Assembly: GCA_934229625.1 (NCBI GenBank)
Contig: CAKQDU010000003.1
Span: forward strand, 64,426 to 128,425
Source: an uncultured Alphaproteobacteria bacterium
GTDB lineage: Bacteria; Pseudomonadota; Alphaproteobacteria; RF32; CAG-239
Direction of reading: 5' to 3'
DNA: 64,000 nucleotides
Shown here piece after piece: positions 1,347 to 20,480 of the stretch. The translations under genes were made by a program, and so were the position numbers. The first letter of the stretch is position 1, and every line of letters starts with the position of its first letter. The notes below the pieces were generated by a model. The model saw only the letters and a program-made list of their open reading frames with translations. It was not told the origin of the DNA and ran no database searches.

Positions 1347-1406
1347 TTGTCATCAAAAAACATAAATATCAAGTGCGTTTATAAAATCGGTTTGCATTGA
1401 TATATT

Positions 1407-4700: not shown

Positions 4701-4744
4701 TGATGAACAACAGATTCATTAAACAAAATAAATAAATAAAAATT

Positions 4745-4777
4745 AAAAAGCGGTTTATATGTAGCATGCCGCTTTTT
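4745..4777 (-). terminator. Bidirectional rho-independent terminator downstream of cspA
   Basis: aaaaagcgg-tttatatgtagcat-gccgcttttt. A/T tracts on both sides. Confidence 0.55.
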
Positions 4778-4799
4778 AATTGTCAAGTTTTTTTATTTT

Positions 4800-5006: not shown

Positions 5007-5102
5007 ATTTACTCCTTAATATTTTTTGTTAAATTTTGTAAATTTATTTACGGAAATGTAGTTAATCACTTTTTGCGGTTATTCAAGGTGCGAAAAATAC
5101 AT

Positions 5103-5561
5103 TTATGCCGGAAAGTAGATATTTTTTTCAATAAGTTGCATTTGTTCGTTTAAAAAGGCCATATCTTCAGCTTTGCGATTTGCGGTTTTGGCGTATTGCT
5201 GCATAATTTTGAAAATTGGTTCAGCATATTTGCTTTCATTTTCGGCAATGCGCCGCAAATAAAAAACAGCGGCCGTAAAAATTTCGGTTTTTTCGGAAAA
5301 AAGCTGACGAGCCACATCAATATACGGAGGATAATCGGTAATCTGAGGTGCTGATTTTTGATTTTCTAAATAGTTTTTTTGTAAAATTTCAGCTTGCGAA
5401 GCGGAAATACGATGTTGTTTATTTTTTTCATTATCACCGACAATAATATTCCAGACACTTTGTAAAAAAGATTTTTTCACCATAATTTTTCTCCTTAACT
5501 TGTAATGTAGCATAGATTTTATAAAAGTGAAGACTTTTTTAACAAAAGATGGGGTCAACAT
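5103..5561 (-). CDS. Hypothetical protein
   Basis: The ORF-track start at 5573 is a TTG. The nearest ATG gives MLTPSFVKKVF.... No recognisable domain. Confidence 0.4.
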   Translation of the reverse strand: MLTPSFVKKVFTFIKSMLHYKLRRKIMVKKSFLQSVWNIIVGDNEKNKQHRISASQAEILQKNYLENQKSAPQITDYPPYIDVARQLFSEKTEIFTAAVFYLRRIAENESKYAEPIFKIMQQYAKTANRKAEDMAFLNEQMQLIEKNIYFPA

Positions 5562-5571
5562 ATATGTTGAC
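5554..5571. promoter_or_regulatory. Perfect 18-bp palindrome GTCAACATATATGTTGAC (operator-like)
   Basis: Read directly. It lies in the divergent intergenic region, overlaps the 5' end of ORF 5103..5561 (-), and contains a TTGACA hexamer. Confidence 0.4.
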
Positions 5572-5704
5572 AAATTATCTTAATTATGTCAAAATACTTG
5601 TAAATCTATCTTAATTTGTGCGGAGTAACGGTCATGAGTGATGAATTTAAAATGAAAAAAGCTGAAGCATATGAAATAAACAGCCTCCAAAAAAACCGGA
5701 TGAG

Positions 5705-6874
5705 ATGAAAAGATGGATACAACATACACCTCAAGAAATAAAAAAACAACTTACTGAAAAAGGTGATTTGTTTACAACCCTTTCAAGTTATGCCTATAGC
5801 GCAACTCAAAAACATGTAGATCCAGAAAGTGAGATGAATCCGGCAAATTATGCTTCTTTTATGATTGCAAAATTGCTTAAAGATTATCGAAATCCTGAAA
5901 ATAAAGCCAAAATGGAAGAAGCCGGTATTGATGATAAATTTATTAAAACTCTAATCCAAGAAGTTGGCTACTCTAATCTGGATAATAGCAACAATCCTAT
6001 TGCAACACACGGCGTTATTGCTGCGGCACTCAAGAATCAGATACACGAAGTCGAAAATTATTTTGAAAAAGAAAAAATACGTGAAAATAACTTAAAAACT
6101 GCAGCTACCATAAGTGAAGAACTTGGTAAAACAGCAGAAAAACGATGGACATGTGGGTATGCAAAACCGCTGGTAGAAATTGAAGAAATAGCAAATAAAT
6201 ATGGTATCATGCCACGTGAAATAGGCGAACATATTGATTGTGCCGTGTCTGGAAAGGATTTTAAACCTTATCAAAATAAACCTGATGAGCTTAATAAAGC
6301 GTTTAAGGAATTATATTCTTGTGGTAAAGATCAATTGAATGCTATGGATTATTTTAACCGTGAACGTAAGTTTAACGCCACATTCAAAGAAACAATGGAT
6401 AATTATAATTCCGGACTTGATAGTTATAGGGATGAGCTTCTACAAAAATTAAAACACTTAGGCATCTCTCCTGATGAAGCAAAGATGGCTCTCTACGCGC
6501 AAAAAGACAAAGAAAGAGAAGCCATGATGGCTGCCGAAAAACAAAAAGAAATTAATAGAAAAGCAGTTATTGAAGCCAAAGAAAAACAGGCACAAGCCGA
6601 GAAAAAAGCTGAACAAGAGCGTTCGGCCGCCGTACAAATTGGCGATTTAATAGTAATATACGACCCTAATAATAAAAATGAAGAAGGACGTTATAATAAT
6701 TTTCGCTATTATGCTCGCAATGACGACGGCTCTTTACATTCTGCGTCATTGGACGAAGCTTGCAAACTTGCCAAAACACCAATTCCTTATAAACACGAGG
6801 CAATTAAAACCGGAGAAAAAATTGACAACGTTGCTCTCTTAAAATCACAAATCAATAAAGGTGCAGAACGTTAA
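5705..6874 (+). CDS. Hypothetical protein, K/E-rich (coiled-coil-like), 389 aa
   Basis: Long ORF with no recognisable catalytic motif. Charged repetitive stretch KEREAMMAAEKQKEINRKAVIEAKEKQAQAEKKAEQER. Confidence 0.45.
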   Translation: MKRWIQHTPQEIKKQLTEKGDLFTTLSSYAYSATQKHVDPESEMNPANYASFMIAKLLKDYRNPENKAKMEEAGIDDKFIKTLIQEVGYSNLDNSNNPIATHGVIAAALKNQIHEVENYFEKEKIRENNLKTAATISEELGKTAEKRWTCGYAKPLVEIEEIANKYGIMPREIGEHIDCAVSGKDFKPYQNKPDELNKAFKELYSCGKDQLNAMDYFNRERKFNATFKETMDNYNSGLDSYRDELLQKLKHLGISPDEAKMALYAQKDKEREAMMAAEKQKEINRKAVIEAKEKQAQAEKKAEQERSAAVQIGDLIVIYDPNNKNEEGRYNNFRYYARNDDGSLHSASLDEACKLAKTPIPYKHEAIKTGEKIDNVALLKSQINKGAER

Positions 6875-7386
6875 TGAACATTCAAGACAAATTAAATGAG
6901 TTGCGCAAAATCGTGGGACGGAAAACATCTGCTGAAAATAATGCTAATGCAGATTTATCGAAGGTGCGTCAAGAGGATAAAACTGAAAGTGATGCCTCAA
7001 ACAATGTAATTAAGCCTATAGAAATCCCTTGCAAAAATTATACTGATGAAAATGGACATTTTGCATATATTGATGTCCAAACAGATAAGGTTGTGCATGT
7101 GAACTTGGAAAGCGAAAAAATTTATACTGAAGATGAAGTTAATCAATTAAGCTTAAAACAAATTACAGACACTTTATCGGATGATTATAAAGAACTGACA
7201 TGGCAAGATGTTGTAAATATTGATACTTTGTATGATAAATTTAACAGACCTGCATTTACATTGCAAGAAGTTGAAGATGCCTTAAAGAAAAAAAATAATC
7301 GTACAAATACAAATGATGAAACTACAAACAGTGGGGACACAACAACCGAAGAAAAACTTATTAGTCAATGGGGACTGCCTTTATAA
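6874..7386 (+). CDS. Hypothetical protein, 170 aa
   Basis: ORF translationally coupled to the previous one (ATGA overlap). No recognisable domain. Confidence 0.4.
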   Translation: MNIQDKLNELRKIVGRKTSAENNANADLSKVRQEDKTESDASNNVIKPIEIPCKNYTDENGHFAYIDVQTDKVVHVNLESEKIYTEDEVNQLSLKQITDTLSDDYKELTWQDVVNIDTLYDKFNRPAFTLQEVEDALKKKNNRTNTNDETTNSGDTTTEEKLISQWGLPL

Positions 7387-7527: not shown

Positions 7528-7601
7528 TGCTTCATCGTCTAATGGTAGGACAGCGGATTCTGACTCCGTCAATCTTGGTTCGAGTCCAGGTGAAGCAGCC
7601 A
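7528..7601 (+). tRNA. tRNA-Gln (anticodon CUG)
   Basis: Cloverleaf folded by hand. The U1:A72-type acceptor (tgcttca / tgaagca) matches the E. coli tRNA-Gln pattern. Anticodon loop ttCTGac, T-loop cttgg-ttcgagt-ccagg, discriminator G, encoded CCA. Confidence 0.85.
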
Positions 7602-7650
7602 ATTTGATAATATCTCCCTGATTTTTGGGAGATTTTTTTTGTAATTTTTC
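7585..7650 (+). repeat. attL: direct repeat covering the tRNA-Gln 3' end plus downstream sequence
   Basis: A 66-bp segment (the last 17 nt of tRNA-Gln plus its terminator region) recurs at 18646..18710. The only differences are 2 mismatches/indels in the T-runs. Confidence 0.85.
7613..7640 (+). terminator. Rho-independent terminator after tRNA-Gln
   Basis: tctccc-tgattttt-gggaga followed by T8. Confidence 0.65.
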
Positions 7651-7773
7651 TAAAAAACAGCAAAAAAACGGCTGATACACTATAGTGATACACCAAAGGA
7701 ATTTTCAGCACTTCCCCCTGTTTTATGTTTTTATGAATCACCGCAATACTTATCCACAGAAAAGGATTGCATT

Positions 7774-9543
7774 TTGAACGGTCATTCGGGATTATATTTA
7801 AGAGGCTCAAACTATTATTTCAGAGGCAAGATTCCAACATATCTGCATTATCTTGCTCCTACAAAATATATCTTACATTCTCTAAAAACTAACAATTACC
7901 GGAAAGCAGTGATTGAATGTCGCAAAGAAAGTTATAAACTGGGCATAGAAATAGAACTTTTAGGGAATATTGATATGCTTATCAAAAGTGGACGAATTGT
8001 TTTAGATAAGTCGGACATAGACAATATAATCATTTATAAACTGAATCAACTTACCGAAGATTTAGAAAACAATTATGATGATATTATGCTAAAACAATAT
8101 GATAAGAATAAAACGCTCGTTTTCAAAGATATTAAAGATGATGAACTAACGCAAAATAAAAAAGACGCGCAAAATATTGAAGGTGTCTTTAAAGAATATA
8201 TTACAGACTTAAAGGACAGACCTGGTACCCACCATAATGTTATTAAGCAAATCAATAAGATACTTAAAGACAATATATCTCTGATGAACGATATTTCCGA
8301 AATAAAAAGTACGCAAAAAGAATTATATAGTGCTATGCGTGGTGTCGACAAATACATCAATGATATGTTTAACTGTATGGAAAATGATGCCAATCAAAAC
8401 ACTTGGACACATCCGCGCGTAAAAGATTGTATTGCCATTATGAATGCGCAAAAAAGTGAACAATGCAAAAATAACGCCTTTAAAACACCTTGGAAAGATG
8501 TGTTTGCCGAATATTTACTGACAAAAAAGCGGCAATCAATCAAACAATTAAATGAGAAAAGCCTGAAGAAAGAAGAAACTTGCATTGATACTTGTTTTAA
8601 ACTTGTAAAGAAAAGTTATGTTGAAGACTTGAATTACAAAGATTGCAAAAAGGTTTCCAGAGACATTTTTAATCTTCCGAAAAAATGGGAAGAAAAGAGC
8701 CTCAAAAAAGGCATATCATTAGAGGAGATGTTAGCACAAGAAAATGAAGACCACATTTCATATTCCACCGCCAAAGGATACTTAATAATATTCCGAAACT
8801 TTTTAATTTATTGCAAGAAAAATCACTATATTGATACAGTATTATATGAAGAAGTTGATATTCCAAAGCCTAAAGATAAGCATTGCAGAGCCGGATTTAG
8901 CGAAAATGAACTAATTAAAATATTTAACCCTAAAACATATCCGAAAAGGATTAGTATTGATAGGTTCCATAATTTCTACATTCCGTTAATAGCCCTTTAT
9001 TCCGGTATGAGATTGGGAGAAATCTGTCAACTCTATGTTTCTGATGTGGTAAAATACGGCAAAAATCTATACTATTTTAATATTACAGATGAAAGAAAAG
9101 ACCAACATTTAAAAACAAAGCAATCAAAACGAATCGTTCCAGTACATCCGATGCTTTTGAGTATGGGATTTTTAGATTTAATAAAACAAGCCAAAGAAAA
9201 GCAAGAAGAACGGATATTCTATAAACTGAAATACTCTGTCAAGAATCACTATGTCAATGCTGTCAGCAACTGGTTTCAATATTATAGCAAGAAGATTGGA
9301 ATTGATGACCCTGACAAAGTATTTCACAGTTTTAGGCATACGGCAAAACAACATTTAAGGGATTGTGGCGTTCCGCAGGAATATCAAAATGCCCTTTGCG
9401 GGTGGAAAGGTACCGACACCGGAGAAACCTCATACGGTGGAAATGTCCCGTTTGAAAAACTATATGAGTATATTTCTATGCTACAATATCCATTTTTAGA
9501 AAAGACACTAAAGAAATTAAAGAAACAGAATAAAATCAAATAA
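7774..9543 (+). CDS. int: Tyrosine recombinase / phage-type integrase
   Basis: N-terminal arm-binding-type motif GLYLRGSNYYFRGKIP. C-terminal catalytic region with R...HSFRHT...Y (RHRY tetrad). Confidence 0.85.
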   Translation: MNGHSGLYLRGSNYYFRGKIPTYLHYLAPTKYILHSLKTNNYRKAVIECRKESYKLGIEIELLGNIDMLIKSGRIVLDKSDIDNIIIYKLNQLTEDLENNYDDIMLKQYDKNKTLVFKDIKDDELTQNKKDAQNIEGVFKEYITDLKDRPGTHHNVIKQINKILKDNISLMNDISEIKSTQKELYSAMRGVDKYINDMFNCMENDANQNTWTHPRVKDCIAIMNAQKSEQCKNNAFKTPWKDVFAEYLLTKKRQSIKQLNEKSLKKEETCIDTCFKLVKKSYVEDLNYKDCKKVSRDIFNLPKKWEEKSLKKGISLEEMLAQENEDHISYSTAKGYLIIFRNFLIYCKKNHYIDTVLYEEVDIPKPKDKHCRAGFSENELIKIFNPKTYPKRISIDRFHNFYIPLIALYSGMRLGEICQLYVSDVVKYGKNLYYFNITDERKDQHLKTKQSKRIVPVHPMLLSMGFLDLIKQAKEKQEERIFYKLKYSVKNHYVNAVSNWFQYYSKKIGIDDPDKVFHSFRHTAKQHLRDCGVPQEYQNALCGWKGTDTGETSYGGNVPFEKLYEYISMLQYPFLEKTLKKLKKQNKIK

Positions 9544-9598
9544 TAATTTATTGATTGTTCAGGATTAAAATTCTTTAAGGAAGAAATTTTCCCAAATA

Positions 9599-11923
9599 TC
9601 ATTTTTTAATTTCAAAAGAATATATGGCATTTTGTTCATATATAATATCTAAAAAAGATGACATTGTTATAGATATTTCTTTATTTGTTGTATATTCAGG
9701 ATTAAATAAATCATCAAATTTTTTATCACCCTTTAACTCTATTTCTTTTACTTTCATATCTTTTACACCTGTTTTGCATAAACTAACTTTACTTTTATCA
9801 ATAAATAAAATTGTATTTTTTTTAGCAAAATTTTTATGAAATAAATAATCATCTTTACTAACGTTTATTGTTCCATTTCCAATTTTTATTTTCTCCGCTC
9901 CTATCGGTGCATCATTCATAATTATTCGTTCTATTGGAAAGGCTTTTAATAAAATAGCCTTAGCAGCACTAAAGTTGGTTATAATACAATAATCCGATAA
10001 ATTTTGTGCTGTAATTTCATCAACTGATGAAATTTTTTTTGATATACTTCGTAATTTTTGAAAAAGTTGCCCATACATTTTTTCTTCTAACATACGATAT
10101 ATTTGTTGTTCAAAATCATCATATACTATCAAACGCCCTTTTTCTTTAGTTATTGTAATATTTCCTAAAGCCATTTTGAGAGCAATTGCAGGTATTTCTT
10201 TTTTAACTCCAAATATCCTATTTATAACATTGTCTGGCACTAAAGCATCATACAAATCTTGTTTCAACTCTTTAATTTCAGATATTTGTTTTTGAGATAA
10301 TTTTGAGTTCAAAATATTTTTTCTTCTCATATCCATTTTTTGATGTAATAAGATGATTTGGCCTATTATATAATTTTTATAACTATCATTTATTTGAAAT
10401 GTACTTACAAGTTCTTCATTAGAAAAGAAATCATCCAGAATTTTTTTTATTTTTTCTATATTATTTAAATAGTTAAAAAATAACTCTTCATTAGTTAAAT
10501 GATTAACAAAATCTTGAGAACTATTAGAATATCTACTTATTTCAGTTTGTATATATTGTTGTCTAAAATCATTAACATTCAATTGTTTTAATTTATCCAT
10601 TTTATCTTTTGCATTACACAAAAAAATGAATAGTGTATAAAATATATATCTTTCCGATTGTTGATTTTTACTAAATACCTGATTCTGAGAAAATGAAGAA
10701 TCTTTGCATAAATAACAATTAAATATTTCATCAATATAACGAGGCATTTGCGGGAAACTATATTCGGAATGATTTTCTTTAGGTGTTTCATAATACATAT
10801 AATCGTATGCTTCCTTATACTTACCTTTATATATTAAATATGAAATTATTTGAGTATTCAACTTCAACATCTGTATTTTATCTATTTCGTCAGAATGTAT
10901 ATAATTCTTTATAATATCTTGCCACAATGTTAGTAAACTAAACGGAAAATTATCGTCAATTAGTACTGTAATTACTTGAAAAACTATCACATTTGGGTGC
11001 ATAAGTTTTCTATTTACATTATCTATAATATTAGGAAAAACATTTTTGTAATATTTATTCAGAATATAATAAAAATCAAATAATGATATTATATCATCAT
11101 GTGAAATATTACATTTATCTAATTTATACATAAATTTTTGTACACAACTTTTTATAATTGCGTCTTCAACATAAAATGAATTTGTATGCTTCCACTTTAA
11201 TAACGCGTTATCTAATAATTCATATTGCATAGTAAAAATAATATTTGCAATTTCTTGTTTAGATAAATTAACCCCACGTTGAAAAATATAAGTCATAATT
11301 TCCAATGGTCTAAAGAGATATTCATTTTCTCTATTTAAGCATACAAAATTATGCTCAAATTTATGCTCATTCCAACTAATATTGTTTTTAAATATATCGT
11401 ATATATATGTAGTAGCGGTCGTAAACAAACTTAAATCGTCTTGATATTGTATTGAGTGAATAGCAATCATTTGTAATAATTCTAAATCTTCATTTTTTGC
11501 ATCAGGTGTTAATACAATATTTTTCACTTTGAAGATTTCTTCAGGATTATTGTAATATTGATATAAGATTCTAAAAGAATAATAACTGAAACATATACTA
11601 AATATAGAAAATATAAAGTTTGGTATCAGTATCAATATATAATATTCACTATCCAATAAAGGCAATAATATTATAGAAAATAAATTTATAATTAAAGTAG
11701 ATGTAATAAACTGAAAGTAATAATGTATATAAAATTTTTTATCTAATTTTGTTATAAAAATTTGCGATATATCTTTAAGACTTTTTGTCGTTTCAAATAT
11801 TTTAGGATAAACAAAAGCAACTAACCCAATATTGATAGTTAATAAGGCTGTTAATATAGTTAAAATATCATCTAAAGAAATCACAGATTGATTTTCATAA
11901 AATAGTTGAATTGACATTTGCAA
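9599..11923 (-). CDS. Large hypothetical protein (774 aa): N-terminal multi-pass membrane region plus a large soluble domain
   Basis: Hydrophobic helices in the first ~130 aa (ILTILTALLTINIGLVAFVY..., LIINLFSIILLPLL..., ILILIPNFIFSIFSICF). No Walker or other catalytic motif recognised. Very AT-rich. It lies directly downstream of the MTase-nuclease pair on the same strand. Confidence 0.5.
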   Translation of the reverse strand: MQMSIQLFYENQSVISLDDILTILTALLTINIGLVAFVYPKIFETTKSLKDISQIFITKLDKKFYIHYYFQFITSTLIINLFSIILLPLLDSEYYILILIPNFIFSIFSICFSYYSFRILYQYYNNPEEIFKVKNIVLTPDAKNEDLELLQMIAIHSIQYQDDLSLFTTATTYIYDIFKNNISWNEHKFEHNFVCLNRENEYLFRPLEIMTYIFQRGVNLSKQEIANIIFTMQYELLDNALLKWKHTNSFYVEDAIIKSCVQKFMYKLDKCNISHDDIISLFDFYYILNKYYKNVFPNIIDNVNRKLMHPNVIVFQVITVLIDDNFPFSLLTLWQDIIKNYIHSDEIDKIQMLKLNTQIISYLIYKGKYKEAYDYMYYETPKENHSEYSFPQMPRYIDEIFNCYLCKDSSFSQNQVFSKNQQSERYIFYTLFIFLCNAKDKMDKLKQLNVNDFRQQYIQTEISRYSNSSQDFVNHLTNEELFFNYLNNIEKIKKILDDFFSNEELVSTFQINDSYKNYIIGQIILLHQKMDMRRKNILNSKLSQKQISEIKELKQDLYDALVPDNVINRIFGVKKEIPAIALKMALGNITITKEKGRLIVYDDFEQQIYRMLEEKMYGQLFQKLRSISKKISSVDEITAQNLSDYCIITNFSAAKAILLKAFPIERIIMNDAPIGAEKIKIGNGTINVSKDDYLFHKNFAKKNTILFIDKSKVSLCKTGVKDMKVKEIELKGDKKFDDLFNPEYTTNKEISITMSSFLDIIYEQNAIYSFEIKK

Positions 11924-12026
11924 ACCTGTATTATTATTTAATCCTATTACATAATATAAAAAAACACCACCTATACAAGCAACAGGTAATGTTTTTTAAC
12001 AAATATCTTTTTATTTTACTTAAATT

Positions 12027-13127
12027 CTACACATCACTTTTGCGTCGGTTGCAGTCTCGGCATAACATTTGGCAATTATCTATTGTTGTATGTCCACCTT
12101 TTGCGTACGGCGTAATGTGGTCTGCTTCCATTTCTGAAATATCAAAATGCTTGCCGCACTTTTTACAATTTCCGTTTTGCCTTTCATAGACAGTTCTTTT
12201 TTCACTATCCTTAAATGCTCTAATACTTAAACATTTTTCATCGCCCGACAGCACATATTCATATATACCCTTTTTAGAAGTTATCTCATCAAATTCATCT
12301 TTCATAAGTGTAGAAATCTGTTCTTCAATTTTTTTAGGGTCTAAATCTGCATCTTTATACTTGTTATATAACAGTCCCCACTTTTGACCTTTCATCTCTT
12401 TTCGGTATTTAGTGAAGATTGTTTCTATCCAATTTATTACTGATTGATAATATTCTTTAAGTTCTCTGGCTGTATGCTCTTGTTGGTGTATTCCCATATA
12501 ATCATCAATAGATTTAATGCCGTCTCTTTGCCTTATCCAATCTAAAACAGTTTCCAGATAGTCTTGCCTTATTGGTGTGCCGGTCATATATTTTTCACCA
12601 ATTTTATACGCTATGCAATTAGACTTACTAAAATATTTTTTAGCATCACTTAACCATTCACCGGTAAAGATAGCGTTTCTTAATTCTTGGTCAGTTAATT
12701 CTATTCCGGCAATATTGATTATTTTAAACCAATCCAATTTTTCACTATCCTTTCCCTCGCAAATATAAACCATCAATTCATAGTCCAATATTTTATCTTG
12801 TTCATCATTTTGCAGAGTATAGAAAAATTTACCATCTACAGAGAAATTACCTTCTAAATATTCGCAAATACTTATTGTTCGCTGCTGACCGTCAAGGAGT
12901 TCATAAGTACCATCTTCATTTAGACACCAATACATAACATTTAGAGGGAAACCTTTTTTGACAGTATTGATTACTTCTATCTTATTTTTATCGCCATAAA
13001 TATATTCTCTTTGGTATTTTGGTCTGATATTTAATTTGCCGCTATAACCGACAACCCCTTCTTCATCATTGTTTATATAACCGTCATAAACATCTCTGAT
13101 TTTGATTCTGTGTAATTCAATCTTCAT
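12027..13127 (-). CDS. DUF262 (ParB/GmrSD-like N-terminal domain) plus C-terminal HNH nuclease
   Basis: N-terminal IRPKYQREYIY and LLDGQQRTISI motifs are typical of DUF262. The C-terminal region CKKCGKHFDISEMEADHITPYAKGGHTTIDNCQMLCRDCNRRKSD is a canonical HNH (His-Me) motif. Confidence 0.7.
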   Translation of the reverse strand: MKIELHRIKIRDVYDGYINNDEEGVVGYSGKLNIRPKYQREYIYGDKNKIEVINTVKKGFPLNVMYWCLNEDGTYELLDGQQRTISICEYLEGNFSVDGKFFYTLQNDEQDKILDYELMVYICEGKDSEKLDWFKIINIAGIELTDQELRNAIFTGEWLSDAKKYFSKSNCIAYKIGEKYMTGTPIRQDYLETVLDWIRQRDGIKSIDDYMGIHQQEHTARELKEYYQSVINWIETIFTKYRKEMKGQKWGLLYNKYKDADLDPKKIEEQISTLMKDEFDEITSKKGIYEYVLSGDEKCLSIRAFKDSEKRTVYERQNGNCKKCGKHFDISEMEADHITPYAKGGHTTIDNCQMLCRDCNRRKSDV

Positions 13128-13128
13128 A

Positions 13129-14217
13129 TTATTTTTTCCTTCTAATTAAAACTCTGGCGTAAATGCTTGAATATAATTCCCCTGTTTCTACATCTTTAAA
13201 TGCTGGCGTTTTATCTTTAATTTGATTAAATTTTCTATAAAGAGTACCTTTCGCATTATATGTGAATTTTCCTGTCCCATTTCCATTTTTATCTAATATT
13301 TCCATCTTTTTATTATTAGTAAATTCGCAACTTCCAACTATTCCTAAATCAACAATTTCAAATTGGTCAGGACTATACTTATCTAAAAATGTAATAGGTA
13401 CCCCCATCACTCCATCATAATCCATAGGTATATCACTTGTTTTATCTACATTGATAGCATTATAATTTTCGTAATGAGGATATTCTTCCGGTGTATATTT
13501 TTTATATAAATCTAAATCTTCGTGTCTTTTTGTTGTTTCAATATTTGTATACCATACAACACCTGAAACACGAATCATTCCTTCTTTATGGTCTCCGGCT
13601 GTTGCATAATCTTCATAATATGGATTGATAAAATGTCCTGCACCACCTTTAAAGCCATATCCTAACCATATCTTGTTTTCTTTTATAAGTTTGAATATTT
13701 CCCTATATGTAATAGCATTTTGATGTCCTATAATTAAAAATTTTTTATTATATTTAATCAACTGTTCTACATACTCTCTAAACAATGAAAATGGTGGATT
13801 TGTAATAACAACATCTGCTTCTTTTAATAATTCAATACATTCATCACTTCTAAAATCACCATCACCCTTTAGAGACTTAACGCCAATTTCTTCTATATCA
13901 GGTACCCTGTTGCTATTTTTATCACCATAATATTCCAAATATACCGCTTGTTCGCTGTCATTTTGAGAAAATAAATCCATATTTTTGTTTTTATAACAAG
14001 TAGTAATCAGTTTTTTCAAACCTAAATGTTCAAAAGAATAACTGAAATAATGAAAAAAATTACTAACCCGCGGGTCATCACAATTACATAAAACAGTCTT
14101 GCCTTTTAAAAATGATTTGTAATGTTTCAGTTCATTTTCAATATCACAAAGTTGAGTATAAAACTCATCTTTTTTATTTCTTTTCGCTTGTTTTAAATTG
14201 TCATTTGCCATCTTCAT
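13129..14217 (-). CDS. N6-adenine DNA methyltransferase, EcoRI-methylase family
   Basis: From memory, the N-terminus (KQAKRNKKDEFYTQLCDIENELKHY...CDDPRVSNFF) and the motif IV VVITNPPFSLFREYVEQLIKYNKKFLII match M.EcoRI-type methylases. The stop is 1 nt from the start of the nuclease gene, so the two form an operon. Confidence 0.65.
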   Translation of the reverse strand: MKMANDNLKQAKRNKKDEFYTQLCDIENELKHYKSFLKGKTVLCNCDDPRVSNFFHYFSYSFEHLGLKKLITTCYKNKNMDLFSQNDSEQAVYLEYYGDKNSNRVPDIEEIGVKSLKGDGDFRSDECIELLKEADVVITNPPFSLFREYVEQLIKYNKKFLIIGHQNAITYREIFKLIKENKIWLGYGFKGGAGHFINPYYEDYATAGDHKEGMIRVSGVVWYTNIETTKRHEDLDLYKKYTPEEYPHYENYNAINVDKTSDIPMDYDGVMGVPITFLDKYSPDQFEIVDLGIVGSCEFTNNKKMEILDKNGNGTGKFTYNAKGTLYRKFNQIKDKTPAFKDVETGELYSSIYARVLIRRKK

Positions 14218-14236
14218 AAATGTCCGTTTATGAAGA
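14211..14236. promoter_or_regulatory. 26-bp hix-like palindrome overlapping the MTase start codon
   Basis: TCTTCATAAATG-TC-CGTTTATGAAGA: 11/12 matching half-sites around a 2-bp core. The MTase ATG (14215-14217, minus strand) lies inside it. Confidence 0.4.
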
Positions 14237-14311
14237 CATTCAAATAAGTATTTTTAATATCTTTATTTGAATCTTTGGAACAGCACGGATTTCCTCAGAT
14301 TTATTTTATTC

Positions 14312-14339
14312 TTGCAACTAAATTGCTATGTGTTATTAT
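14312..14339 (+). promoter_or_regulatory. Sigma70-like promoter (TTGCAA-16-TATTAT) inside a segment bracketed by an 11-bp inverted repeat
   Basis: ttgcaa ctaaattgctatgtgt tattat. It lies between the 11-bp inverted repeats at 14220-14230 and 14360-14370, and points toward the recombinase gene at 14425. Confidence 0.35.
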
Positions 14340-14424
14340 GCTAAAAAATTTATATCAACTAAACGGACATCTATTTTATATAGTCTTTTGATAAATACTT
14401 ATGTAATATCAAAGGATTATTAAA

Positions 14425-15021
14425 ATGATTTATTCTTACATTAGAGTCAGTTCAGACCAGCAAAATTGCGCCAATCAAAAATATGAGGTGGAATGTTATG
14501 CCGCTAAAAATAACATAACCATTAATGAGTACATTGAAGAAACAATATCTTCCAGAAAACCGCTTAAAGACAGAAAATTAGGCAAATTATTAAATAAACT
14601 TTCAAAAGGAGATATTGTTATCAGTACCGAAATATCCAGACTTGGGCGAAATATGTTAGAGGTTATGGGAATTTTACAAACTTGTTTAGAAAAAGATTGT
14701 GAGATAATAACCATAAAAGAAAACTATCATCTTGGGGCGGATATTCAGTCCAAAGTTTTGGCGTTTGCATTTTCTCTTGCCGCTGAAATTGAGCGTCAAC
14801 TTATTTCTCAACGCACAAAGGAATGCCTTAAACGCTTAAAAAATGAGGGTAAACATCTTGGCAGACCTTATGGTTTTACATACAAAAAACTAAAAAAGAA
14901 ACACAATAAGATAATTGATTTACTTAATAAAAAAGTATCCAAAGCGGAAATTGCTCGGCTGATGGGGTGTTCGTGGGCAACATTGCATAGATACATTAAA
15001 GAATGCTGTATAATCTCTTAG
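14425..15021 (+). CDS. Serine recombinase (resolvase/invertase family)
   Basis: N-terminal catalytic motif YIRVSSDQQ. Resolvase core ...LGRNMLEVMGIL.... C-terminal HTH (AEIARLMGCSWATLHRYIK). Confidence 0.8.
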   Translation: MIYSYIRVSSDQQNCANQKYEVECYAAKNNITINEYIEETISSRKPLKDRKLGKLLNKLSKGDIVISTEISRLGRNMLEVMGILQTCLEKDCEIITIKENYHLGADIQSKVLAFAFSLAAEIERQLISQRTKECLKRLKNEGKHLGRPYGFTYKKLKKKHNKIIDLLNKKVSKAEIARLMGCSWATLHRYIKECCIIS

Positions 15022-15575
15022 TGTGCTTGTTTATTCAAATATCCATAAACAGTCGGGCGTGTAATGTTAAATTGTCGGGCAATTTGGGCTATCGGTAAAC
15101 CTTGGTCGGCAAGTTTATTCAATTCTGCAACTTGCGCATCTGACAGTTTATTTTTACCGCCTTTGTATTTACCTTTTGCTTTAGCAATAGCCACGCCTTC
15201 TCTTACACGTTGATTGATGAGTTCTCGTTCCAACTGTGCTACCGCGCCAAGCATTGTCATCATCAGTTGTTGGTACGGGTCTTTTTTATCTGGAGAAAAA
15301 GTCAAATTCTCCTTATGAAAAATAACAGTCGCTCCGAGTTTGTTAATTTCTTCCACCAGATTCAACAAATCACGCGTGTTTCGTGCTAATCTATCCATTG
15401 AATGCACATTTACAATGTCGCCTTGTCTTAAATTGCTCATCATTGCCTGCAATTCCGGTCTATCGGTATTCTTACCCGATAATTTGTCTTCATATTCTCT
15501 ATCGCACGCAACGCCGGCTAATTGTCTTTCCGTATTTTGCACAACAGTTGAAACTCTTTTATAATTAAAAATCAT
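15018..15575 (-). CDS. Serine recombinase, Hin/Gin/Pin-like DNA invertase
   Basis: YKRVSTVVQNTERQ catalytic region, DRLARNTRDLLNLV, C-terminal HTH IAQIARQFNITRPTVYGYL. 185 aa. Overall similarity to the Gin/Hin family. Confidence 0.8.
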   Translation of the reverse strand: MIFNYKRVSTVVQNTERQLAGVACDREYEDKLSGKNTDRPELQAMMSNLRQGDIVNVHSMDRLARNTRDLLNLVEEINKLGATVIFHKENLTFSPDKKDPYQQLMMTMLGAVAQLERELINQRVREGVAIAKAKGKYKGGKNKLSDAQVAELNKLADQGLPIAQIARQFNITRPTVYGYLNKQAH

Positions 15576-15790
15576 AGTAAAGTCCTTTTATGTAAAATCA
15601 TCATTTATAATGCTATTTTACATTACTCAAAAAGTGTAAAATTGTCAAGCATTTTAGTTTACATTTTACACTTTTATAAATGTATATTCTGACTACTGTC
15701 TGATTTTCCATTTTTCTAATAATGATTCATTATATTTTAAAAAGAATCGCGTATTATGCTACTAATTAAAAATATCAAAAGGCTTATACA

Positions 15791-16780
15791 ATGGAACAAC
15801 AAGGCGAAATCATTATTTACCAGTCGGCTGACGGCAAAAATAAACTGGATGTAAAATTAGAAAATGAAACTGTTTGGCTTTCTCAATCTCAATTAGTTGA
15901 CTTATACCAAACCAGCAAATCAAACATCAGCGAGCATATAAAAAATATTTTTAATGAGGGTGAACTATCGGCCGATTCAGTTGTTCGGAAATTCCGAACA
16001 ACTGCCGCAGACGGTAAAAATTATTCAACGCAATTTTACAATCTTGATATGATTATTTCCTTAGGGTACCGCATAAAGTCTTCTATTGCCACCCAGTTCC
16101 GCATTTGGGCAACCGAACGCATAAAGGAATATATCATCAAAGGATTTACCATTGATGACGAACGTTTAAAACAAAACGGCGGCGGAAATTATTGGAAAGA
16201 ATTGTTAGACCGCATCAGAGATATCCGCTCCTCTGAAAAAGTTTTATACCGTCAGGTTTTGGATTTATACGCCACAAGTTATGATTATAATGCCAAAGCA
16301 CCGGAAACTATTGAATTTTTTAAAGTTGTCCAAAATAAATTACATTTTGCCGCGCACGGTCATACAGCATCAGAAGTTATATATGAACGTGCAAATGCCG
16401 ATAAGCCTTTTATGGGATTAACCACATTTTCCGGCGACCTGCCAACTAAAGCCGAAGCCAAAATTGCTAAAAATTATTTAAGCGAAAAAGAATTAAAGGT
16501 GCTGAACAATCTTGTTTCCGGATATTTTGACTTTGCAGAAATCTATGCCGTTCGTCACGAACATTTATATATGAAAGATTATCTTAAACAGTTAGACAAC
16601 ATTTTATCGGCAACCGGAGAAAACGTCTTACAAGGCGCAGGTAAAATCAGTCATCAAAAAGCAATGGAAAAAGTTGAGGCTGAATATAAAAAATATCAGG
16701 AAAAGACCTTAACTCCGATAGAACAAGCATATTTGGAAAACTTGAAAAGTTTGGAAAAAAAGATAGAAGACAAAAAATAA
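15791..16780 (+). CDS. rhuM: RhuM-family protein (virulence-associated / Fic-neighbourhood DNA-binding protein)
   Basis: N-terminal IIYQSADGKNKLDVKLENETVWLSQSQLVDLYQTSKSNISEHIKNIF...YNLDMIISLGYRIKSSIATQFRIWATE. Characteristic RhuM-family block. Confidence 0.7.
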   Translation: MEQQGEIIIYQSADGKNKLDVKLENETVWLSQSQLVDLYQTSKSNISEHIKNIFNEGELSADSVVRKFRTTAADGKNYSTQFYNLDMIISLGYRIKSSIATQFRIWATERIKEYIIKGFTIDDERLKQNGGGNYWKELLDRIRDIRSSEKVLYRQVLDLYATSYDYNAKAPETIEFFKVVQNKLHFAAHGHTASEVIYERANADKPFMGLTTFSGDLPTKAEAKIAKNYLSEKELKVLNNLVSGYFDFAEIYAVRHEHLYMKDYLKQLDNILSATGENVLQGAGKISHQKAMEKVEAEYKKYQEKTLTPIEQAYLENLKSLEKKIEDKK

Positions 16781-16825
16781 ACGCTTTTTTTTGATTTTCA
16801 GAGAATGTTTATCCATTACCAAAAA

Positions 16826-16875
16826 TCTAAAAAGCGGGGTTTGCGGAAAATAAAAGTAGGAAATAACAAAAAACA
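16826..16875. repeat. 50-bp direct repeat, copy 1 (copy 2 at 18748..18797)
   Basis: atctaaaaagcggggtttgcggaaaataaaagtaggaaataacaaaa compared with atctaaaaagcggtgttggcgtaaaataaaagtaggaaataacaaaa. Each copy is followed by a different hairpin. Confidence 0.6.
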
Positions 16876-16940
16876 GCACATTTCTGCGCTGTTTCATACA
16901 ACATTTGTAAAAGACTTCAATTTGTTTTTCACATAAGTAT

Positions 16941-17504
16941 TTATCTTGCCGGATATAAAATTGCACCGCGGTCAATTAAATAATTCGCAATATCCAACTC
17001 CATTTTTGCCAAAGCCGTGGTTAGCGGTGTTTGTGCCTGAACATTTAGCCAATTTATGTCCGCTCCCTCATTTATCAAATATGCCACGCCATTCAATTTT
17101 TGTTCTTTCGTCATATTATCATTTAATATCAACAAAATAAGCGCATTATTTCCAAACACATCAGTACGATATACAGAGGCTCCGTTATTCACTAAAAACT
17201 CCGGAATTTCCATATCCGTACACATATAACATGCCATTAAAAATAGTGAAGCGTGGCGGGCATTTATGGAATCATCTATGTTAAAATCTGGATTTTCTTC
17301 CAACATATTTTTGATTTCATCCATATCGTTAATGTTAAAACACTCGTCAACTTCATCATTATAAGGACGATAAACCGGAACTGTCTTCAAGCGTTTTTCT
17401 AAAGCGTCTAATTTTTTACGAATAGCCGGAAGTTGTTCCACCGGCACATATTTAATATAAGTATTATCAAAATTTGCGTTCATATACTTCCCCTTTGCTT
17501 TCAA
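16941..17504 (-). CDS. Hypothetical protein with C-terminal ankyrin repeats
   Basis: ...NGASVYRTDVFGNNALILLI...VAYLINEGADINWLNVQAQTPLTTALAKMELDIANYLIDRGA: 2-3 ankyrin repeats. Confidence 0.55.
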   Translation of the reverse strand: MKAKGKYMNANFDNTYIKYVPVEQLPAIRKKLDALEKRLKTVPVYRPYNDEVDECFNINDMDEIKNMLEENPDFNIDDSINARHASLFLMACYMCTDMEIPEFLVNNGASVYRTDVFGNNALILLILNDNMTKEQKLNGVAYLINEGADINWLNVQAQTPLTTALAKMELDIANYLIDRGAILYPAR

Positions 17505-17632
17505 TTATATTTATTGGCAAAACCAACACCAGCCGCAAAATATAAAAAAGACACCGAATAAAATCCGATGCCTTATATAAAAGATAAAAGTTCTACGTCG
17601 AAAGCATATCAACGCATAACTATTTATCCTCT

Positions 17633-18199
17633 TTATACCGCCTTTTTGAATATTTTACTGTTTATATATGATGGTGTTTCAATCCTCTTTTTATTGAAAT
17701 GCATGTCTTTTTCACAATCGTTGGAATTTATATAATCCAAGCATTTATCAATATCATATATGGCTTCAAATTTGTGAGAGGCTTTCGGATAAATGTCTTT
17801 AAACAGCCTTTGAATAAAGCCTAAAAATATGGATAATTCAGTAATATCTAAACAATTGATGATAAAATGTATATGATTTGATTTACCCTTTTGTTTTTCA
17901 ATAATTCCGGTCCAGTTGAACTGCAAATGTTTTAACTTTATCCATTTGCTACCATATTTCCACCTGTAATATCTTGCTAATATATATTTGAAATCATCTT
18001 CTAACTTAACTTCATCTACACCACAGTTGGGCTGAAGAGTGATAAACCATCGTCCGTTATTTGTTGTCAATGTTTTTGGCTTGTCAACATTCATATCAAT
18101 ATAGGTTGATTTTAATTTTCTCATCATTGATAATGGTTCTTGTGTAATTCTGTTCTGAAAAATATTGTGTATCATTGTTTTACAATCCTCTAATGCCAA
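17633..18199 (-). CDS. HUH-superfamily endonuclease-like protein (rolling-circle Rep / TnpA-like), 188 aa
   Basis: Three motifs in order: WFITLQPN (Rep motif I, FLTLT-like), SNHIHFIIN (HUH motif II), and SYINSKIFKK (Y-x3-K motif III). It is the last gene inside the island, just before attR. Confidence 0.45.
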   Translation of the reverse strand: MALEDCKTMIHNIFQNRITQEPLSMMRKLKSTYIDMNVDKPKTLTTNNGRWFITLQPNCGVDEVKLEDDFKYILARYYRWKYGSKWIKLKHLQFNWTGIIEKQKGKSNHIHFIINCLDITELSIFLGFIQRLFKDIYPKASHKFEAIYDIDKCLDYINSNDCEKDMHFNKKRIETPSYINSKIFKKAV

Positions 18200-18645
18200 T
18201 AATAAAATAAGAAAATTTAGCCAAAGTTTTTAATTCACCATTATTTTTTAAGGGTGTCATATTTTCTCTATTTTTGAGGTCTTTGCTAATACAAAGTAGG
18301 CATCTGCCATTCAGCGTATTATGCTTAAAGCATCTCTAACATCGGGAAGATAATGTTTAAAGATGCCATCTTCCCTTTGATATTTATTATGCCATATTAC
18401 ACTTTTTTATTGCAAAAATAAAATTAGTATTAGTGGTTAAAAATAATATTGACAAATAGAAATTTTTAAATACGGCAATACATCTGAAAAAAACATCAAT
18501 TCATAAAAATCAAAAAAAGCCTTGACGACTTATTTATCCTATGTTATTTGATTAAAAGTACTTATACACTTATTGACAATGTATTGTTAAGATTTAATAA
18601 AAATATAAAGCAATATCAGAGTGATGTTTAATTTTTAACTGGTCT

Positions 18646-18710
18646 TCCAGGTGAAGCAGCCAATTTGATAATATCTCCCTGATTTTTTGGAGATTTTTTT
18701 GTAATTTTTC
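18646..18710 (+). repeat. attR: copy of the tRNA-Gln 3' end plus terminator region
   Basis: tccaggtgaagcagccaatttgataatatctccctgatttttt ggagattttttt gtaatttttc. See attL. Confidence 0.85.
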
Positions 18711-18747
18711 CAAATATTAAAATTGAGTTAGAAATAAATTACCAAGA

Positions 18748-18797
18748 ATCTAAAAAGCGGTGTTGGCGTAAAATAAAAGTAGGAAATAACAAAAGGA
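18748..18797. repeat. 50-bp direct repeat, copy 2
   Basis: See the feature at 16826..16875. This copy is immediately followed by the hairpin aaaggacc-tgaaaataata-ggtccttt. Confidence 0.6.
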
Positions 18798-18818
18798 CCT
18801 GAAAATAATAGGTCCTTT

Positions 18819-19094
18819 AAAATTATGTTGTTTACGTACCAATTCTGTAACAGCCTCACGCCATAAGTCAACCGCAAAATCAAAGCGTTATTATGATCGA
18901 AAGTGTGTAAAAAAAACGACCGTTTAAAATGGACAGTTTTTCGGCTGTTTTTTGCAGTATATCATAATTTATGAAAAATGCAATAACATTATAATTTTAC
19001 GCTATTTTTTATTGATTTTCAGATGTTTTTCCGCCTCCGATTCCGTTGTGTAAAAATAACGGTCGTTTTTTTTACACAATTGAGGAGGAATAAG
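18819..19094 (+). repeat. Conserved ~260-bp upstream cassette, copy 1 (copy 2 at 36148..36426)
   Basis: Module Y (aaattatgttgtttac...taacagcctcacgccataagtcaaccgcaaaatcaaag) plus module Z, ending in the Shine-Dalgarno site and ATG of the downstream gene. About 85% identical to copy 2 apart from a diverged central part. Confidence 0.8.
18904..19078. promoter_or_regulatory. Perfect 21-bp inverted repeats (TGTGTAAAAAAAACGACCGTT / AACGGTCGTTTTTTTTACACA) flanking a 133-bp segment
   Basis: Left arm at 18904-18924, right arm at 19058-19078. The identical arms recur at 36235-36255 / 36390-36410 around a 134-bp partially diverged spacer. Confidence 0.7.
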
Positions 19095-20480
19095 ATGTTT
19101 AACTATTTGAAAAAATATAACATATTCTGTAGTTTAAAGCTTTTTGTAGTTTTGTATGCAGTCAGTATGTTTTCTATTTCTGCGGAAGCCAAAATTTGTT
19201 TTTTACCGGACAGCAGCTGCGGCACCGGTAAAATAAGTTCCGTAAAGCCAAACCCGTCGCAATGTATTTATAGCAGCATGGCTCAAGCCCAAAATGGCAT
19301 ATCAAGCTGCGAAAAAGCGTATAAGCAAAATTTCTGCTTTTACAGACGCTGCAAAACCGAAGACAATAATATATTTGCAGACGAAGCAAGCTGCAAAAAG
19401 AAAGCCAAAGCTGATAATTTAATCTGCGTAAGCTGCGGCGGCTGCTATAAAGTTACGCCGAAAACATGCCCGAGTGGGTACACGGCAGGCTTAACCACCT
19501 GTGCGGAAAAAGCCGGCTATACTGCAAGTTATTCAAGCAACGGCTATGCCGGATATAGTGTCTGCGGCAAGTGCAAATATACCATAAAACCGTGTGAAAG
19601 CGGCTATACGGTAGGTTTGGCCAGCTGTCCGGAAAAACAAGGTTATACTTCGAACTATTCCCGAAACGGAGTTTCCGGCGAGCAGGTTTGCGGCAAGTGC
19701 GACTACACGGCAAAAGGCTGCGCCAGCGGTTATACGGCTGGTTTGACAAGCTGCAGCGAACGGCGCGGCTATAATGCAAGTTATGCCAGCAATGGGTATG
19801 CCGGGGAGTTGGCTTGCGGCAAGTGCGACTACACGGCAAAAGGCTGCGCCGGCGGTTATACAGCAGGTCTGACAAGCTGCAGCGAACGGCGCGGATATAA
19901 TGCAAGCTATGCCAGCAACGGGTATTCCGGCGAGAAAATTTGCGGAAAATGCGACTACACGGCAAGAACTTGTCCAGATGGATATTCTACAAAATATAGC
20001 AGCGTCAGCGCCTGCGGAGAAACAGGAAGCAACGGCTGGAATTATGCTAGCAACGGCTATTCTGGGGAAGCTGTGTGCGGAAAATGTACAAAGAAACCAT
20101 GTCCTAGTGGGTATTATTATTGGTTATATAGTGAAAATATTAAAGATATGTTTAAAAGACCTTGCAATACAAGTACAAGATGTCCGGCAGATAGCGGATA
20201 TTATGAATATTATGAATCTCCAGGGTTTGGTGTCTATTATAATATGTGTAAAAATTATGGCTTTTGGGGGAGAGTTGCCGGTCGTAGCGGAGATGGTATT
20301 TGTTTTAAGACGGGCGATCGTCCTTGTCCTAGTGGTACAATAGGAGGTGGTGCTTCTAAGGCAAGTGAATATTGTGAAAAGACTTATGGTAAAAAATACA
20401 GATATAGATATAGAGAGGTAAAAAATCCAGATGGTAGTGATATGTGTACAGGTTATGAGCATTGTTGGAAATGTTATTGA
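19095..20480 (+). CDS. Secreted cysteine-rich tandem-repeat protein (461 aa from the ATG at 19095)
   Basis: Strong Shine-Dalgarno site gaggagga before ATG 19095 (the ORF-track start at 19023 is a non-ATG start upstream). Signal peptide MFNYLKKYNIFCSLKLFVVLYAVSMFSISAEA. At least 6 copies of a ~40-aa unit: CGKCDYTAKGCASGYTAGLTSCSERRGYNASYASNGYAGE. Confidence 0.75.
   Translation: MFNYLKKYNIFCSLKLFVVLYAVSMFSISAEAKICFLPDSSCGTGKISSVKPNPSQCIYSSMAQAQNGISSCEKAYKQNFCFYRRCKTEDNNIFADEASCKKKAKADNLICVSCGGCYKVTPKTCPSGYTAGLTTCAEKAGYTASYSSNGYAGYSVCGKCKYTIKPCESGYTVGLASCPEKQGYTSNYSRNGVSGEQVCGKCDYTAKGCASGYTAGLTSCSERRGYNASYASNGYAGELACGKCDYTAKGCAGGYTAGLTSCSERRGYNASYASNGYSGEKICGKCDYTARTCPDGYSTKYSSVSACGETGSNGWNYASNGYSGEAVCGKCTKKPCPSGYYYWLYSENIKDMFKRPCNTSTRCPADSGYYEYYESPGFGVYYNMCKNYGFWGRVAGRSGDGICFKTGDRPCPSGTIGGGASKASEYCEKTYGKKYRYRYREVKNPDGSDMCTGYEHCWKCY
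19690..19930. repeat. Two near-identical tandem 120-bp DNA repeats inside the Cys-rich gene
   Basis: The run gcggcaagtgcgactacacggcaaaaggctgcgcc...gcaagttatgccagcaatgggtatgccgg is repeated with about 6 substitutions. Confidence 0.8.

Follow-up and report, generated by a model that had tools for sequence, protein, structure and literature searches.

A tRNA-Gln island of gut Alphaproteobacteria with a Rep-like HUH protein in its recurring backbone

Tycheposons are tRNA-inserted elements of about 5-20 kb that carry an inward-facing integrase (a tyrosine recombinase or, in some, a large serine recombinase) and att sites that are partial copies of the tRNA gene (Hackl et al., bioRxiv 10.1101/2020.12.28.424599). 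Here, an element of 11.06 kb is described which lies at a tRNA-Gln gene of an uncultured alphaproteobacterium from the human gut, within a stretch of 64,000 nucleotides (nt) of contig CAKQDU010000003.1 (hereafter the window, to whose positions all coordinates refer unless another contig is named). It encodes a tyrosine integrase at one end and, at the other, a Rep-like HUH protein of 180 amino acids (aa), which was named RepL. The island resembles tycheposons in its insertion at a tRNA gene, its inward-facing end integrase, its att copies of part of the tRNA and its size. If RepL is assumed to be a replication module, the two also share an integrase at one end, a replication module at the other and cargo in between. 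In contrast, tycheposons have primases, helicases and polymerases as their hallmark genes for replication, where the island has a 180-aa HUH Rep-like protein; its backbone further adds genes for an ankyrin protein and for a small serine invertase, and it belongs to gut Alphaproteobacteria instead of marine cyanobacteria.

Phage-inducible chromosomal islands (PICIs) and other phage satellites are likewise small integrative elements that combine an integrase with a replication function, and such elements, like the island, can carry anti-phage cargo. However, no terminase small subunit, capsid-remodelling gene or repressor module was recognised in it by Pfam or PHROGs, and no relatives were obtained from IMG/VR. 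Since packaging and sensing genes are lacking, the island is not a satellite of the PICI type.

Among plasmid initiators, RepB of pMV158 is a small, helicase-less protein whose origin lies beside its gene and contains a hairpin and 11-bp iterons. RepL is comparable in being a short HUH protein (about 180-210 aa in the two cases) with a single putative catalytic tyrosine and no helicase, and related islands carry four 11-nt repeats upstream of RepL. Unlike RepB, with which it has no detectable sequence similarity, RepL had no relatives among the plasmids searched (PLSDB) and is part of a chromosomal element with an integrase. A link to the replication proteins of plectroviruses and inoviruses (PF23343) is given by one RepL relative that passes the cut-off of this family over the full domain; initiators of the gpII type are typically much longer than RepL. 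Integrative mobilizable elements with Rep-type relaxases also unite an integrase, one HUH protein and cargo with no transfer apparatus, but no origin of transfer (oriT), coupling protein or match to a relaxase family was found in the island, and no helper element is known for it.

Mpi is the master DNA invertase of Bacteroides fragilis (NCBIfam NF009949; PMC10403206). The first of two small serine recombinases of the island, inv1, matches the Mpi model end to end, and invertons of the promoter type, at least two of which share the same inverted repeats, are present in the host chromosome. The differences are that inv1 scores under the cut-off of the model, that it is encoded on a mobile island and that its host is an alphaproteobacterium.

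tRNA-inserted defence islands are common, and the island as such is therefore ordinary. What appears to be undescribed is its backbone family, the constant part of which is not the integrase but a module that unites an orphan HUH Rep-like protein with an ankyrin protein and with a small invertase of the serine type. A much wider proposition would be that RepL, DUF6626, the ankyrin protein and the invertase make up an undescribed integrative rolling-circle family (4.8 to more than 11 kb) of gut Alphaproteobacteria that swaps integrases and tRNA targets and ferries defence cargo between species, and whose invertase flips chromosomal invertons in trans; as a whole, we regard this as improbable. 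If it did act in trans, the invertase would place the phase variation of surface proteins of the host under the control of a mobile element. Should RepL work as an initiator or relaxase, the islands would be the counterpart, in the gut, of tycheposons and phage-inducible islands, from which they would differ in the chemistry of their replication. They would then also be a vehicle for restriction systems, BREX-adjacent genes and abortive-infection genes among uncultured gut Alphaproteobacteria.

Insertion site and mobility

The integration target is tRNA-Gln(CTG) (7528-7601, plus strand; ARAGORN), and the same tRNA is found at an empty site (contig L018) and at an occupied locus of a second lineage (L027). 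A direct repeat of 69 nt, which begins 17 nt before the 3' end of the tRNA gene, frames the element. Its two copies are attL (7585-7653) and attR (18646-18714), and island-specific DNA extends from about 7654 to 18645. The copies are 90% identical in an ungapped alignment and 95.7% identical with one 1-nt gap (repeat finder, BLAST), and their 42 leading nt are the same. This 42-mer occurs twice in the window versus 0 times expected (100 shuffles), which shows that it is no common duplicated terminator within the window. The repeat includes a terminator formed by a hairpin and a T-run, CTCCC-TGATTTTT-GGGAG-T8.

A sequence-only reading of the window had proposed that an integrative island is located at tRNA-Gln, between attL and attR, and that the repeat which brackets it includes 17 nt of the tRNA 3' end and the terminator. 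Both points were borne out by the predicted tRNA, by the repeat, whose length is now set at 69 nt, and by the empty site. The cargo had further been described as richer in AT than the flanking genes, and indeed the GC content is 29.9% in the island versus 38.1% in the remaining window, with extreme values only in the gene of a 774-aa protein (22.8%) and in the spacer between RepL and attR (25.5%). All nine genes named in that reading exist as open reading frames (ORFs) with the domains ascribed to them.

The integrase gene (7774-9543, plus strand, 589 aa) starts 172 nt past the end of tRNA-Gln and faces inward. Pfam assigned an N-terminal DUF6538 domain (PF20172, 1.2e-8) and a C-terminal Phage_integrase catalytic domain (PF00589, 1.1e-10) to its product, which also matched phrog_1 (3.5e-21); the arginine (GMRLGE), HxxR (HSFRH) and C-terminal tyrosine motifs are present. 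The tyrosine type and the position beside the tRNA were as anticipated, but the architecture is not P4-like, since the N-terminal arm-binding domain Arm-DNA-bind_3 (DUF4102) was not detected in the protein by Pfam.

Island copies identical to that of the window were obtained on many human-gut metagenome contigs, and the att pattern matched one species-representative genome, a metagenome-assembled genome from the Hadza gut. ERZ27286942, ERZ27287287 and ERR7745419 are examples of samples in which the island is present. When 23 contigs with the left-flank gene were read, the island was present in 21, one contig ended inside attL and one (L018) was empty, with window position 7654 joined straight to 18646 and a single att copy. 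L018 has private single-nucleotide polymorphisms in att and a right flank of 96% identity, and is therefore a different haplotype and not a collapsed assembly. The sample that gave L018 also yielded an island-bearing contig (L005).

In the second lineage (lineage B; L019 and L026-L029, as opposed to lineage A of the window), the island is 96.5% identical over 11.2 kb, while the left flank is 68-74% identical and the right flank is unrelated, with rpsD and tRNA-Lys. By gene, nucleotide identity between lineages A and B is 99-100% for a restriction-modification (R-M) pair, 96-98% for most others and 92.5% for the gene of the 774-aa protein. All island copies aligned to the window were collinear, and no internal inversion was found among them. 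Occupied and empty sites coexist in nature, and the element moved between lineages with chromosomes that are about 70% identical; the island is real and recently mobile. The absence of an empty site anywhere, which the sequence-only reading had named as an argument against an island, was not what was found, as L018 is empty and lineage B holds the island in different flanks.

Comparison of the att sites of both lineages narrowed down the crossover. The repeat of lineage B comprises only 18 nt, TCCAGGTGAAGCAGCCAA, and this is the only stretch common to attL and attR in L027. Since the ends of this lineage share nothing else, strand exchange must fall within these 18 nt (7585-7602 in the window), by which a precise attachment core is defined. 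The attL of the window, which consists of the final 17 nt of the tRNA gene plus a terminator, is identical to the attL of lineage B and has the same type of terminator, while the attR of lineage B retains its native terminator. The terminator copy beside the tRNA in attL is island-borne, and the native copy now lies at attR, behind the 18-nt core. Because the element supplies its own tRNA 3' end and terminator, tRNA-Gln stays intact. The attP arm is homologous to the downstream region of this lineage's own tRNA-Gln, which accounts for the long repeat in the window. The predicted attP sequence reads AATTTTTAACTGGTCT + TCCAGGTGAAGCAGCCAA + TTTGATAATATCTCCCTGATTTTTGGGAGATTTTTTTTGTAATTTTTCTAAAAAACAGC, and attB corresponds to 6387-6560 of L018.

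RepL and the backbone of related islands

RepL is encoded at 17633-18175 on the minus strand and is labelled as a hypothetical protein at NCBI. The 180-aa ATG start, which is used by gene callers, was adopted; an 188-aa TTG start is not on record. The family is small, with 42 representatives among 1.84 billion in an exhaustive HMMER search and 10 proteins in a word-indexed search. In an alignment of 21 sequences, down to 21% identity, G75, H101, H103 and Y148 are invariant and P49 and E93 near-invariant (codons 17867-17875 for H101/H103 and 17732-17734 for Y148). Rep motifs I, II and III had been assigned to this last gene of the island. Two of them, FITLQPN and HIHFI, proved to be conserved, but the tyrosine of the presumed Y-x3-K motif (Y140 in Y-D-I-D-K) is not, and the invariant tyrosine is Y148 instead.

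In the AlphaFold2 (AF2) model of RepL, secondary structure elements follow the order beta-alpha-beta-beta-alpha-beta. The HUH motif H101-I-H103 is located on a strand (residues 100-107) and Y148 lies C-terminal to it, in a helix (142-149) within a segment of which the predicted local distance difference test (pLDDT) is below 50. The only family matched was PF23343 (REP_ORF2-G2P), by 8 of the 21 members. Of these proteins, P0043 scored 30.0 bits against the cut-off of 27.8 bits over the whole domain, and was aligned to the RepL profile with an hhalign probability of 96.6% (39% identity over 94 columns). By way of this transitive link, RepL is a distant relative of PF23343 and not a scored member. 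From the conserved residues, the transitive family link and a model that is weak yet consistent with them, we conclude that RepL is a predicted, divergent HUH endonuclease akin to rolling-circle initiators.

Metagenomes were scanned with RepL alignments, of which a wide one was too divergent and a narrow one worked. This gave 50 loci, almost all from human-gut assemblies, whose ORFs were clustered and annotated by representatives. Reading from the tRNA, the genes recur in the order integrase, small ORF, RepL, DUF6626 protein, ankyrin protein (about 221 aa) and, encoded on the other strand, Mpi-like invertase, after which the cargo varies. The Mpi-like invertase was found at most 3.5 kb from RepL in 37 of the 42 loci with enough downstream sequence, and a tRNA gene at most 4 kb upstream in 24 of the 25 loci with enough upstream sequence. 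In most loci, the integrase is a large serine recombinase at tRNA-Leu(cag), while L069 has a DUF6538-type tyrosine integrase at tRNA-Ser, L066 an integrase of the same type and L020 a P4-type tyrosine integrase with Arm-DNA-bind_3. Among the cargo are a restriction enzyme of Type ISP together with a PIF1 helicase, an Abi_2 protein, an AAA ATPase, a radical-SAM protein and further ankyrin proteins. As judged from gene content and order, a family of tRNA-inserted islands is shown in which the backbone (RepL, in the usual case DUF6626, the ankyrin protein and the small serine recombinase) is constant and integrase, tRNA target and cargo vary.

From the conserved synteny of the related loci it follows that RepL, the ankyrin protein and the invertase are backbone and not cargo. 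In the window, inv1 (14425-15021, plus strand; PF00239, 3.3e-33) matches the Mpi model NF009949 over residues 1-194 of 198 with 265.9 bits, narrowly under the cut-off of 272. The second small serine recombinase, inv2 (15018-15575, minus strand; PF00239, 1.9e-36; HTH_7, 7.3e-11), is Hin/resolvase-like, is encoded convergently with inv1 with an overlap of 4 nt and is 48% identical to the sole serine recombinase of L020. The ankyrin-repeat protein (16941-17504, minus strand; PF12796, 1.9e-7) has 187 aa, or 180 aa according to gene callers, and occupies the same position after RepL as in the related islands. Paired invertases and an ankyrin protein had been listed among the genes carried by the island; their presence was confirmed, and invertase and ankyrin protein belong with RepL to the backbone and are no miscellaneous cargo.

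Contig L030 has counterparts of RepL and of the ankyrin protein with 98% identity to the window, and an Mpi-like invertase directly after them. As 15022-16795 (inv2 and the RhuM-family gene described below) is absent from L030, this segment is an insertion relative to the L030 backbone. Neither a DUF6626 gene nor another small backbone ORF was found in the island of the window, and a full-text literature search returned no papers on DUF6626 or DUF6538. The smallest relative, L020 (1-4784), extends from a tRNA 3' fragment to a tRNA T-arm, its ends being two tRNA-derived repeats, and contains only backbone genes in the order serine recombinase, 62-aa ORF, small ankyrin protein, RepL, 160-aa ORF, DUF6626 and P4-type integrase. 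By its gene content it looks like a cargo-free minimal element. At the tRNA-Leu loci L071-L075, RepL is only about 107-113 aa long, being cut after about residue 102 and followed by unrelated DNA; from their sequence these loci look like decayed island remnants.

The leader of RepL contains structured noncoding DNA. A motif TGAAT-GGCAGATGCC-TAC with a 10-nt mini-hairpin (18296-18313, minus strand), 121-138 nt upstream of RepL, is a candidate nick site or operator. It was found in seven loci (the window, L027, L030, L020, L066, L068 and L069), where it starts about 110-140 nt before RepL and its stems vary yet pair (GGCA/TGCC, AGCA/TGCT, GCC/GGC). In the scanned loci it occurs only upstream of RepL and nowhere else on either strand. 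Further away, a hairpin with an 8-bp stem (GGGAAGAT...ATCTTCCC; 18344-18375, minus strand) is interleaved with a second inverted repeat, GCATCT/AGATGC, and comparable interleaved inverted repeats lie upstream of RepL in L066, L020 and L031. The DNA fold of 18230-18420 has a z-score of -2.66 versus shuffled sequences. In the tRNA-Leu islands, 4.1 copies of the 11-nt unit AGACAAGCATT precede RepL (L035, 2101-2145; also L031 and L042-L064), and nested or interleaved inverted repeats are present there as well, 110-250 nt upstream of RepL. By analogy, these 11-nt units resemble the Rep-binding iterons of rolling-circle origins.

Candidate roles of RepL in the excised element

We consider it fairly probable that the island was inserted by its own tyrosine integrase, that the excised circle replicates via RepL and that the cargo protects the host. 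The att site lies between the integrase and RepL genes, which are neighbours only in the excised circle. The integrase would excise the element as a circle, in which the RepL gene and its structured leader adjoin attP and the integrase gene. RepL may then nick one strand at an origin in the leader, using Tyr148 and a metal bound by the HxH motif, and from this nick rolling-circle replication would proceed with the helicase and polymerase of the host, in the manner of small helicase-less plasmid Reps. Such replication could prevent loss of the excised circle or provide single-stranded copies for transfer, and the small serine recombinase may resolve circle multimers. The R-M pair, the RhuM-family protein and the 774-aa protein would shield the host from phage and render the element addictive. 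That the excised circle replicates by the rolling-circle mode or is mobilised is an inference and not a finding.

Several results weigh against this reading. Neither an attP junction nor a circular contig was found among the contigs and fetched loci, none of which had terminal overlaps. No excisionase was recognised by Pfam, PHROGs or in the ORF list, the small ORFs in 18200-18650 all being of at most 39 aa. The RepL leader of the window has no clear iterons. RepL itself reached only 16.9 bits (E = 0.008) with PF23343, under the gathering cut-off of 27.8 bits, and its AF2 model is of low confidence (mean pLDDT 58.6), although the core is better, with means of 10-residue blocks of 64-86 over about 41-80 and 91-140. 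The top Foldseek match, the nuclease domain of the PCV2 Rep protein with single-stranded DNA (6wdz, E = 0.012), is weak and stands among many generic ferredoxin-like folds, and the family profile gave only noise against PDB sequences. No RepL relatives were detected in 2.9 million IMG/VR viral contigs or among PLSDB plasmids. The single INPHARED match of RepL, the record 'Bacteriophage sp.' MT837677, was rejected as a packaged form, as what it holds is a piece of chromosome that includes host genes, tRNA-Leu, the serine integrase and the start of RepL. A match of P0043 to a coding sequence of the 3.6-kb circular plasmid pRGF00092 was weak (E = 8e-3) and was not relied on. Finally, nothing in the sequence data separates a replication initiator from a conjugative relaxase in the case of RepL.

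That last point leads to the alternative which survives best, although its chance is clearly the smaller one: the island may be an integrative mobilizable element in which RepL is a relaxase that nicks an oriT in the leader, the strand leaving through the conjugation pore of a co-resident element. The HUH and tyrosine signature is common to relaxases and Reps, and the relaxases of many mobilizable elements of streptococci and of the Tn916/ICESt3 family are Rep-type HUH proteins. A conserved hairpin motif upstream of RepL and the fact that the island crossed lineages with no conjugation genes of its own would also suit a mobilized element. On the other hand, the sole family link of RepL is to PF23343, a phage and plasmid replication family, and not to a relaxase family; the 11-nt iterons of related islands are typical of Rep-binding origins; and neither a coupling protein nor a type IV secretion system gene was found in the island of the window or in the related loci.

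It is unlikely that the island is plainly driven by its integrase, with RepL as an inactive or repurposed HUH fold (for example a DNA-binding regulator), no replication of the circle and spread by occasional transduction or transformation. Such a view gains from the missing circular form, from the scores of RepL under family thresholds, from the absence of its family in the searched plasmids and phages and from the truncated remnants in L071-L075. However, H101, H103 and Y148 do not vary even among sequences with only about 21% identity, a conservation that speaks for retained catalysis; moreover, RepL is kept in the 4.8-kb minimal element and is linked to every integrase type.

Still less probable, and in our view very doubtful, is a satellite or remnant of a filamentous phage (inovirus- or plectrovirus-like) with RepL as an initiator of the gpII/ORF2 type and packaging by a helper. 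The ORF2/G2P replication proteins of such phages make up PF23343, the backbone is small, and the RS1 satellite of the CTX phage likewise retains Rep and has no morphogenesis genes. Yet no morphogenesis, coat or packaging gene was found, PHROGs recognised only integrase and invertase, and neither the 2.9 million IMG/VR contigs, devoid of RepL relatives, nor the lone 'Bacteriophage sp.' record, a chromosomal fragment with host genes, offers a phage form. That no mobile element is present at all, the repeat being a duplicated terminator and the 11 kb fixed ancestral DNA, is practically dismissed: although the island is found in 21 of the 23 lineage contigs read, it is refuted by the empty site, by a 96.5% identical island between flanks that are about 70% identical or unrelated, and by a repeat that occurs only twice in the window, with its 18-nt core exactly at the tRNA 3' end.

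Defence cargo, invertons and flanking repeats

The defence genes predicted for the island were confirmed by Pfam and PADLOC as a type II R-M pair and a RhuM-family gene. The restriction endonuclease (12027-13127, minus strand) combines a DUF262/GmrSD_N domain (PF03235, 7.5e-18) with a C-terminal HNH domain (PF01844, 5e-15) and matched the PADLOC model REase_II PDLC03418 over its full length (2.3e-137). Its partner is an N6-adenine DNA methyltransferase of the EcoRI-methylase family (13129-14217, minus strand; PF13651, 1.6e-135; MTase_II of PADLOC, 1.1e-114). The two genes are 1 nt apart and qualify as a type II R-M system. The RhuM-family protein (15791-16780, plus strand; PF13310, 4.7e-105) belongs to the candidate defence family PDC-S05 (PADLOC, 1.6e-160) and is cargo.

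Palindrome avoidance was considered as a route to the specificity of the R-M pair, and rejected, as the strong avoidance of GATC cannot be tied to it. GATC was observed 9 times in the window versus about 165 expected, and 0 times in the island; GGCC, CATG, TCGA and CTAG are likewise depleted in the window. The depletion of GATC suggests long exposure to restriction enzymes that cut this sequence.

The 774-aa protein (772 aa by gene callers; 9599-11923, minus strand) is a candidate defence protein with 11 homologues and no family match in Pfam, PADLOC, PHROGs or NCBIfam. Its gene has the lowest GC content of the island (22.8%) and is the fastest-evolving one (92.5% identity between lineages vs 97-100% for the others). 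Homologues of about 50% identity are encoded directly after BrxL in type 1 BREX clusters (L022, 10001-12358; L023, 3455-5812), and homologues of 26% identity beside an Mrr-type endonuclease (L024, 2857-5202; L025). The AF2 model (pLDDT 76.9) consists of long N-terminal helices, which were read by eye as transmembrane, an alpha-helical solenoid and a C-terminal alpha/beta domain. Foldseek gave no significant fold match of the model in the PDB, and matches to HK97-fold capsid proteins were dismissed as weak and partial (TM < 0.36). Judged by its sequence relatives, the protein is a member of an uncharacterised family tied to defence loci. Its genomic context, low GC content and fast divergence fit a defence or counter-defence role; as a clearly bounded gene, it is a candidate for a defence function of a new kind.

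Outside the island, two promoter-type invertible segments were found at 18901-19081 and 36232-36413; both are bounded by the same 24-nt inverted repeats (AAGTGTGTAAAAAAAACGACCGTT / AACGGTCGTTTTTTTTACACAATT), with 133-134 nt between them. About 190 nt separate the first one from attR, and it immediately precedes the ribosome-binding site of a gene for a secreted cysteine-rich repeat protein (19095-20480), which contains tandem repeats of 126 nt (19514-19965, 74-88% identity). It has the opposite orientation on contig L008, and the empty-site strain (L018) also has the inverton by attR. No recombinase is encoded near the second inverton, and the only serine invertases of the window are inv1 and inv2, both on the island. 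Neither the island nor any related island contains the inverted-repeat sequence, and the invertons could not be linked directly to the island invertases.

The invertons are surrounded by a family of repeats that are 82-92% identical (18813-19102, 35066-35289 and 35996-36434; also L007, 1-390). Contig L001/L007 matches the window up to 18880 and continues with sequence like that of 35827-36210, which suggests, from these junctions, recombination between paralogous inverton loci in some strains. L008 diverges from the window after 21257. In its first 6,900 nt (1-6900), the cysteine-rich gene and the right end of the island are joined to Clostridia-type genes (SCIFF peptide, radical SAM maturase, SecDF and RecJ), and it is probably a chimeric assembly.

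The repeat finder further revealed a 57-nt direct repeat, D2, of which one copy lies between the RhuM-family and ankyrin genes (16815-16871) and the other, 93% identical, in the chromosome 24 nt past attR (18738-18794). In lineage B, the internal copy is present along with the island, while the chromosomal copy is found only in lineage A, the empty site included. The homology of L030 to the window stops at 16796, just beside the internal copy. From its distribution, D2 may be the remnant of an older island or the trace of a past exchange between island and chromosome.

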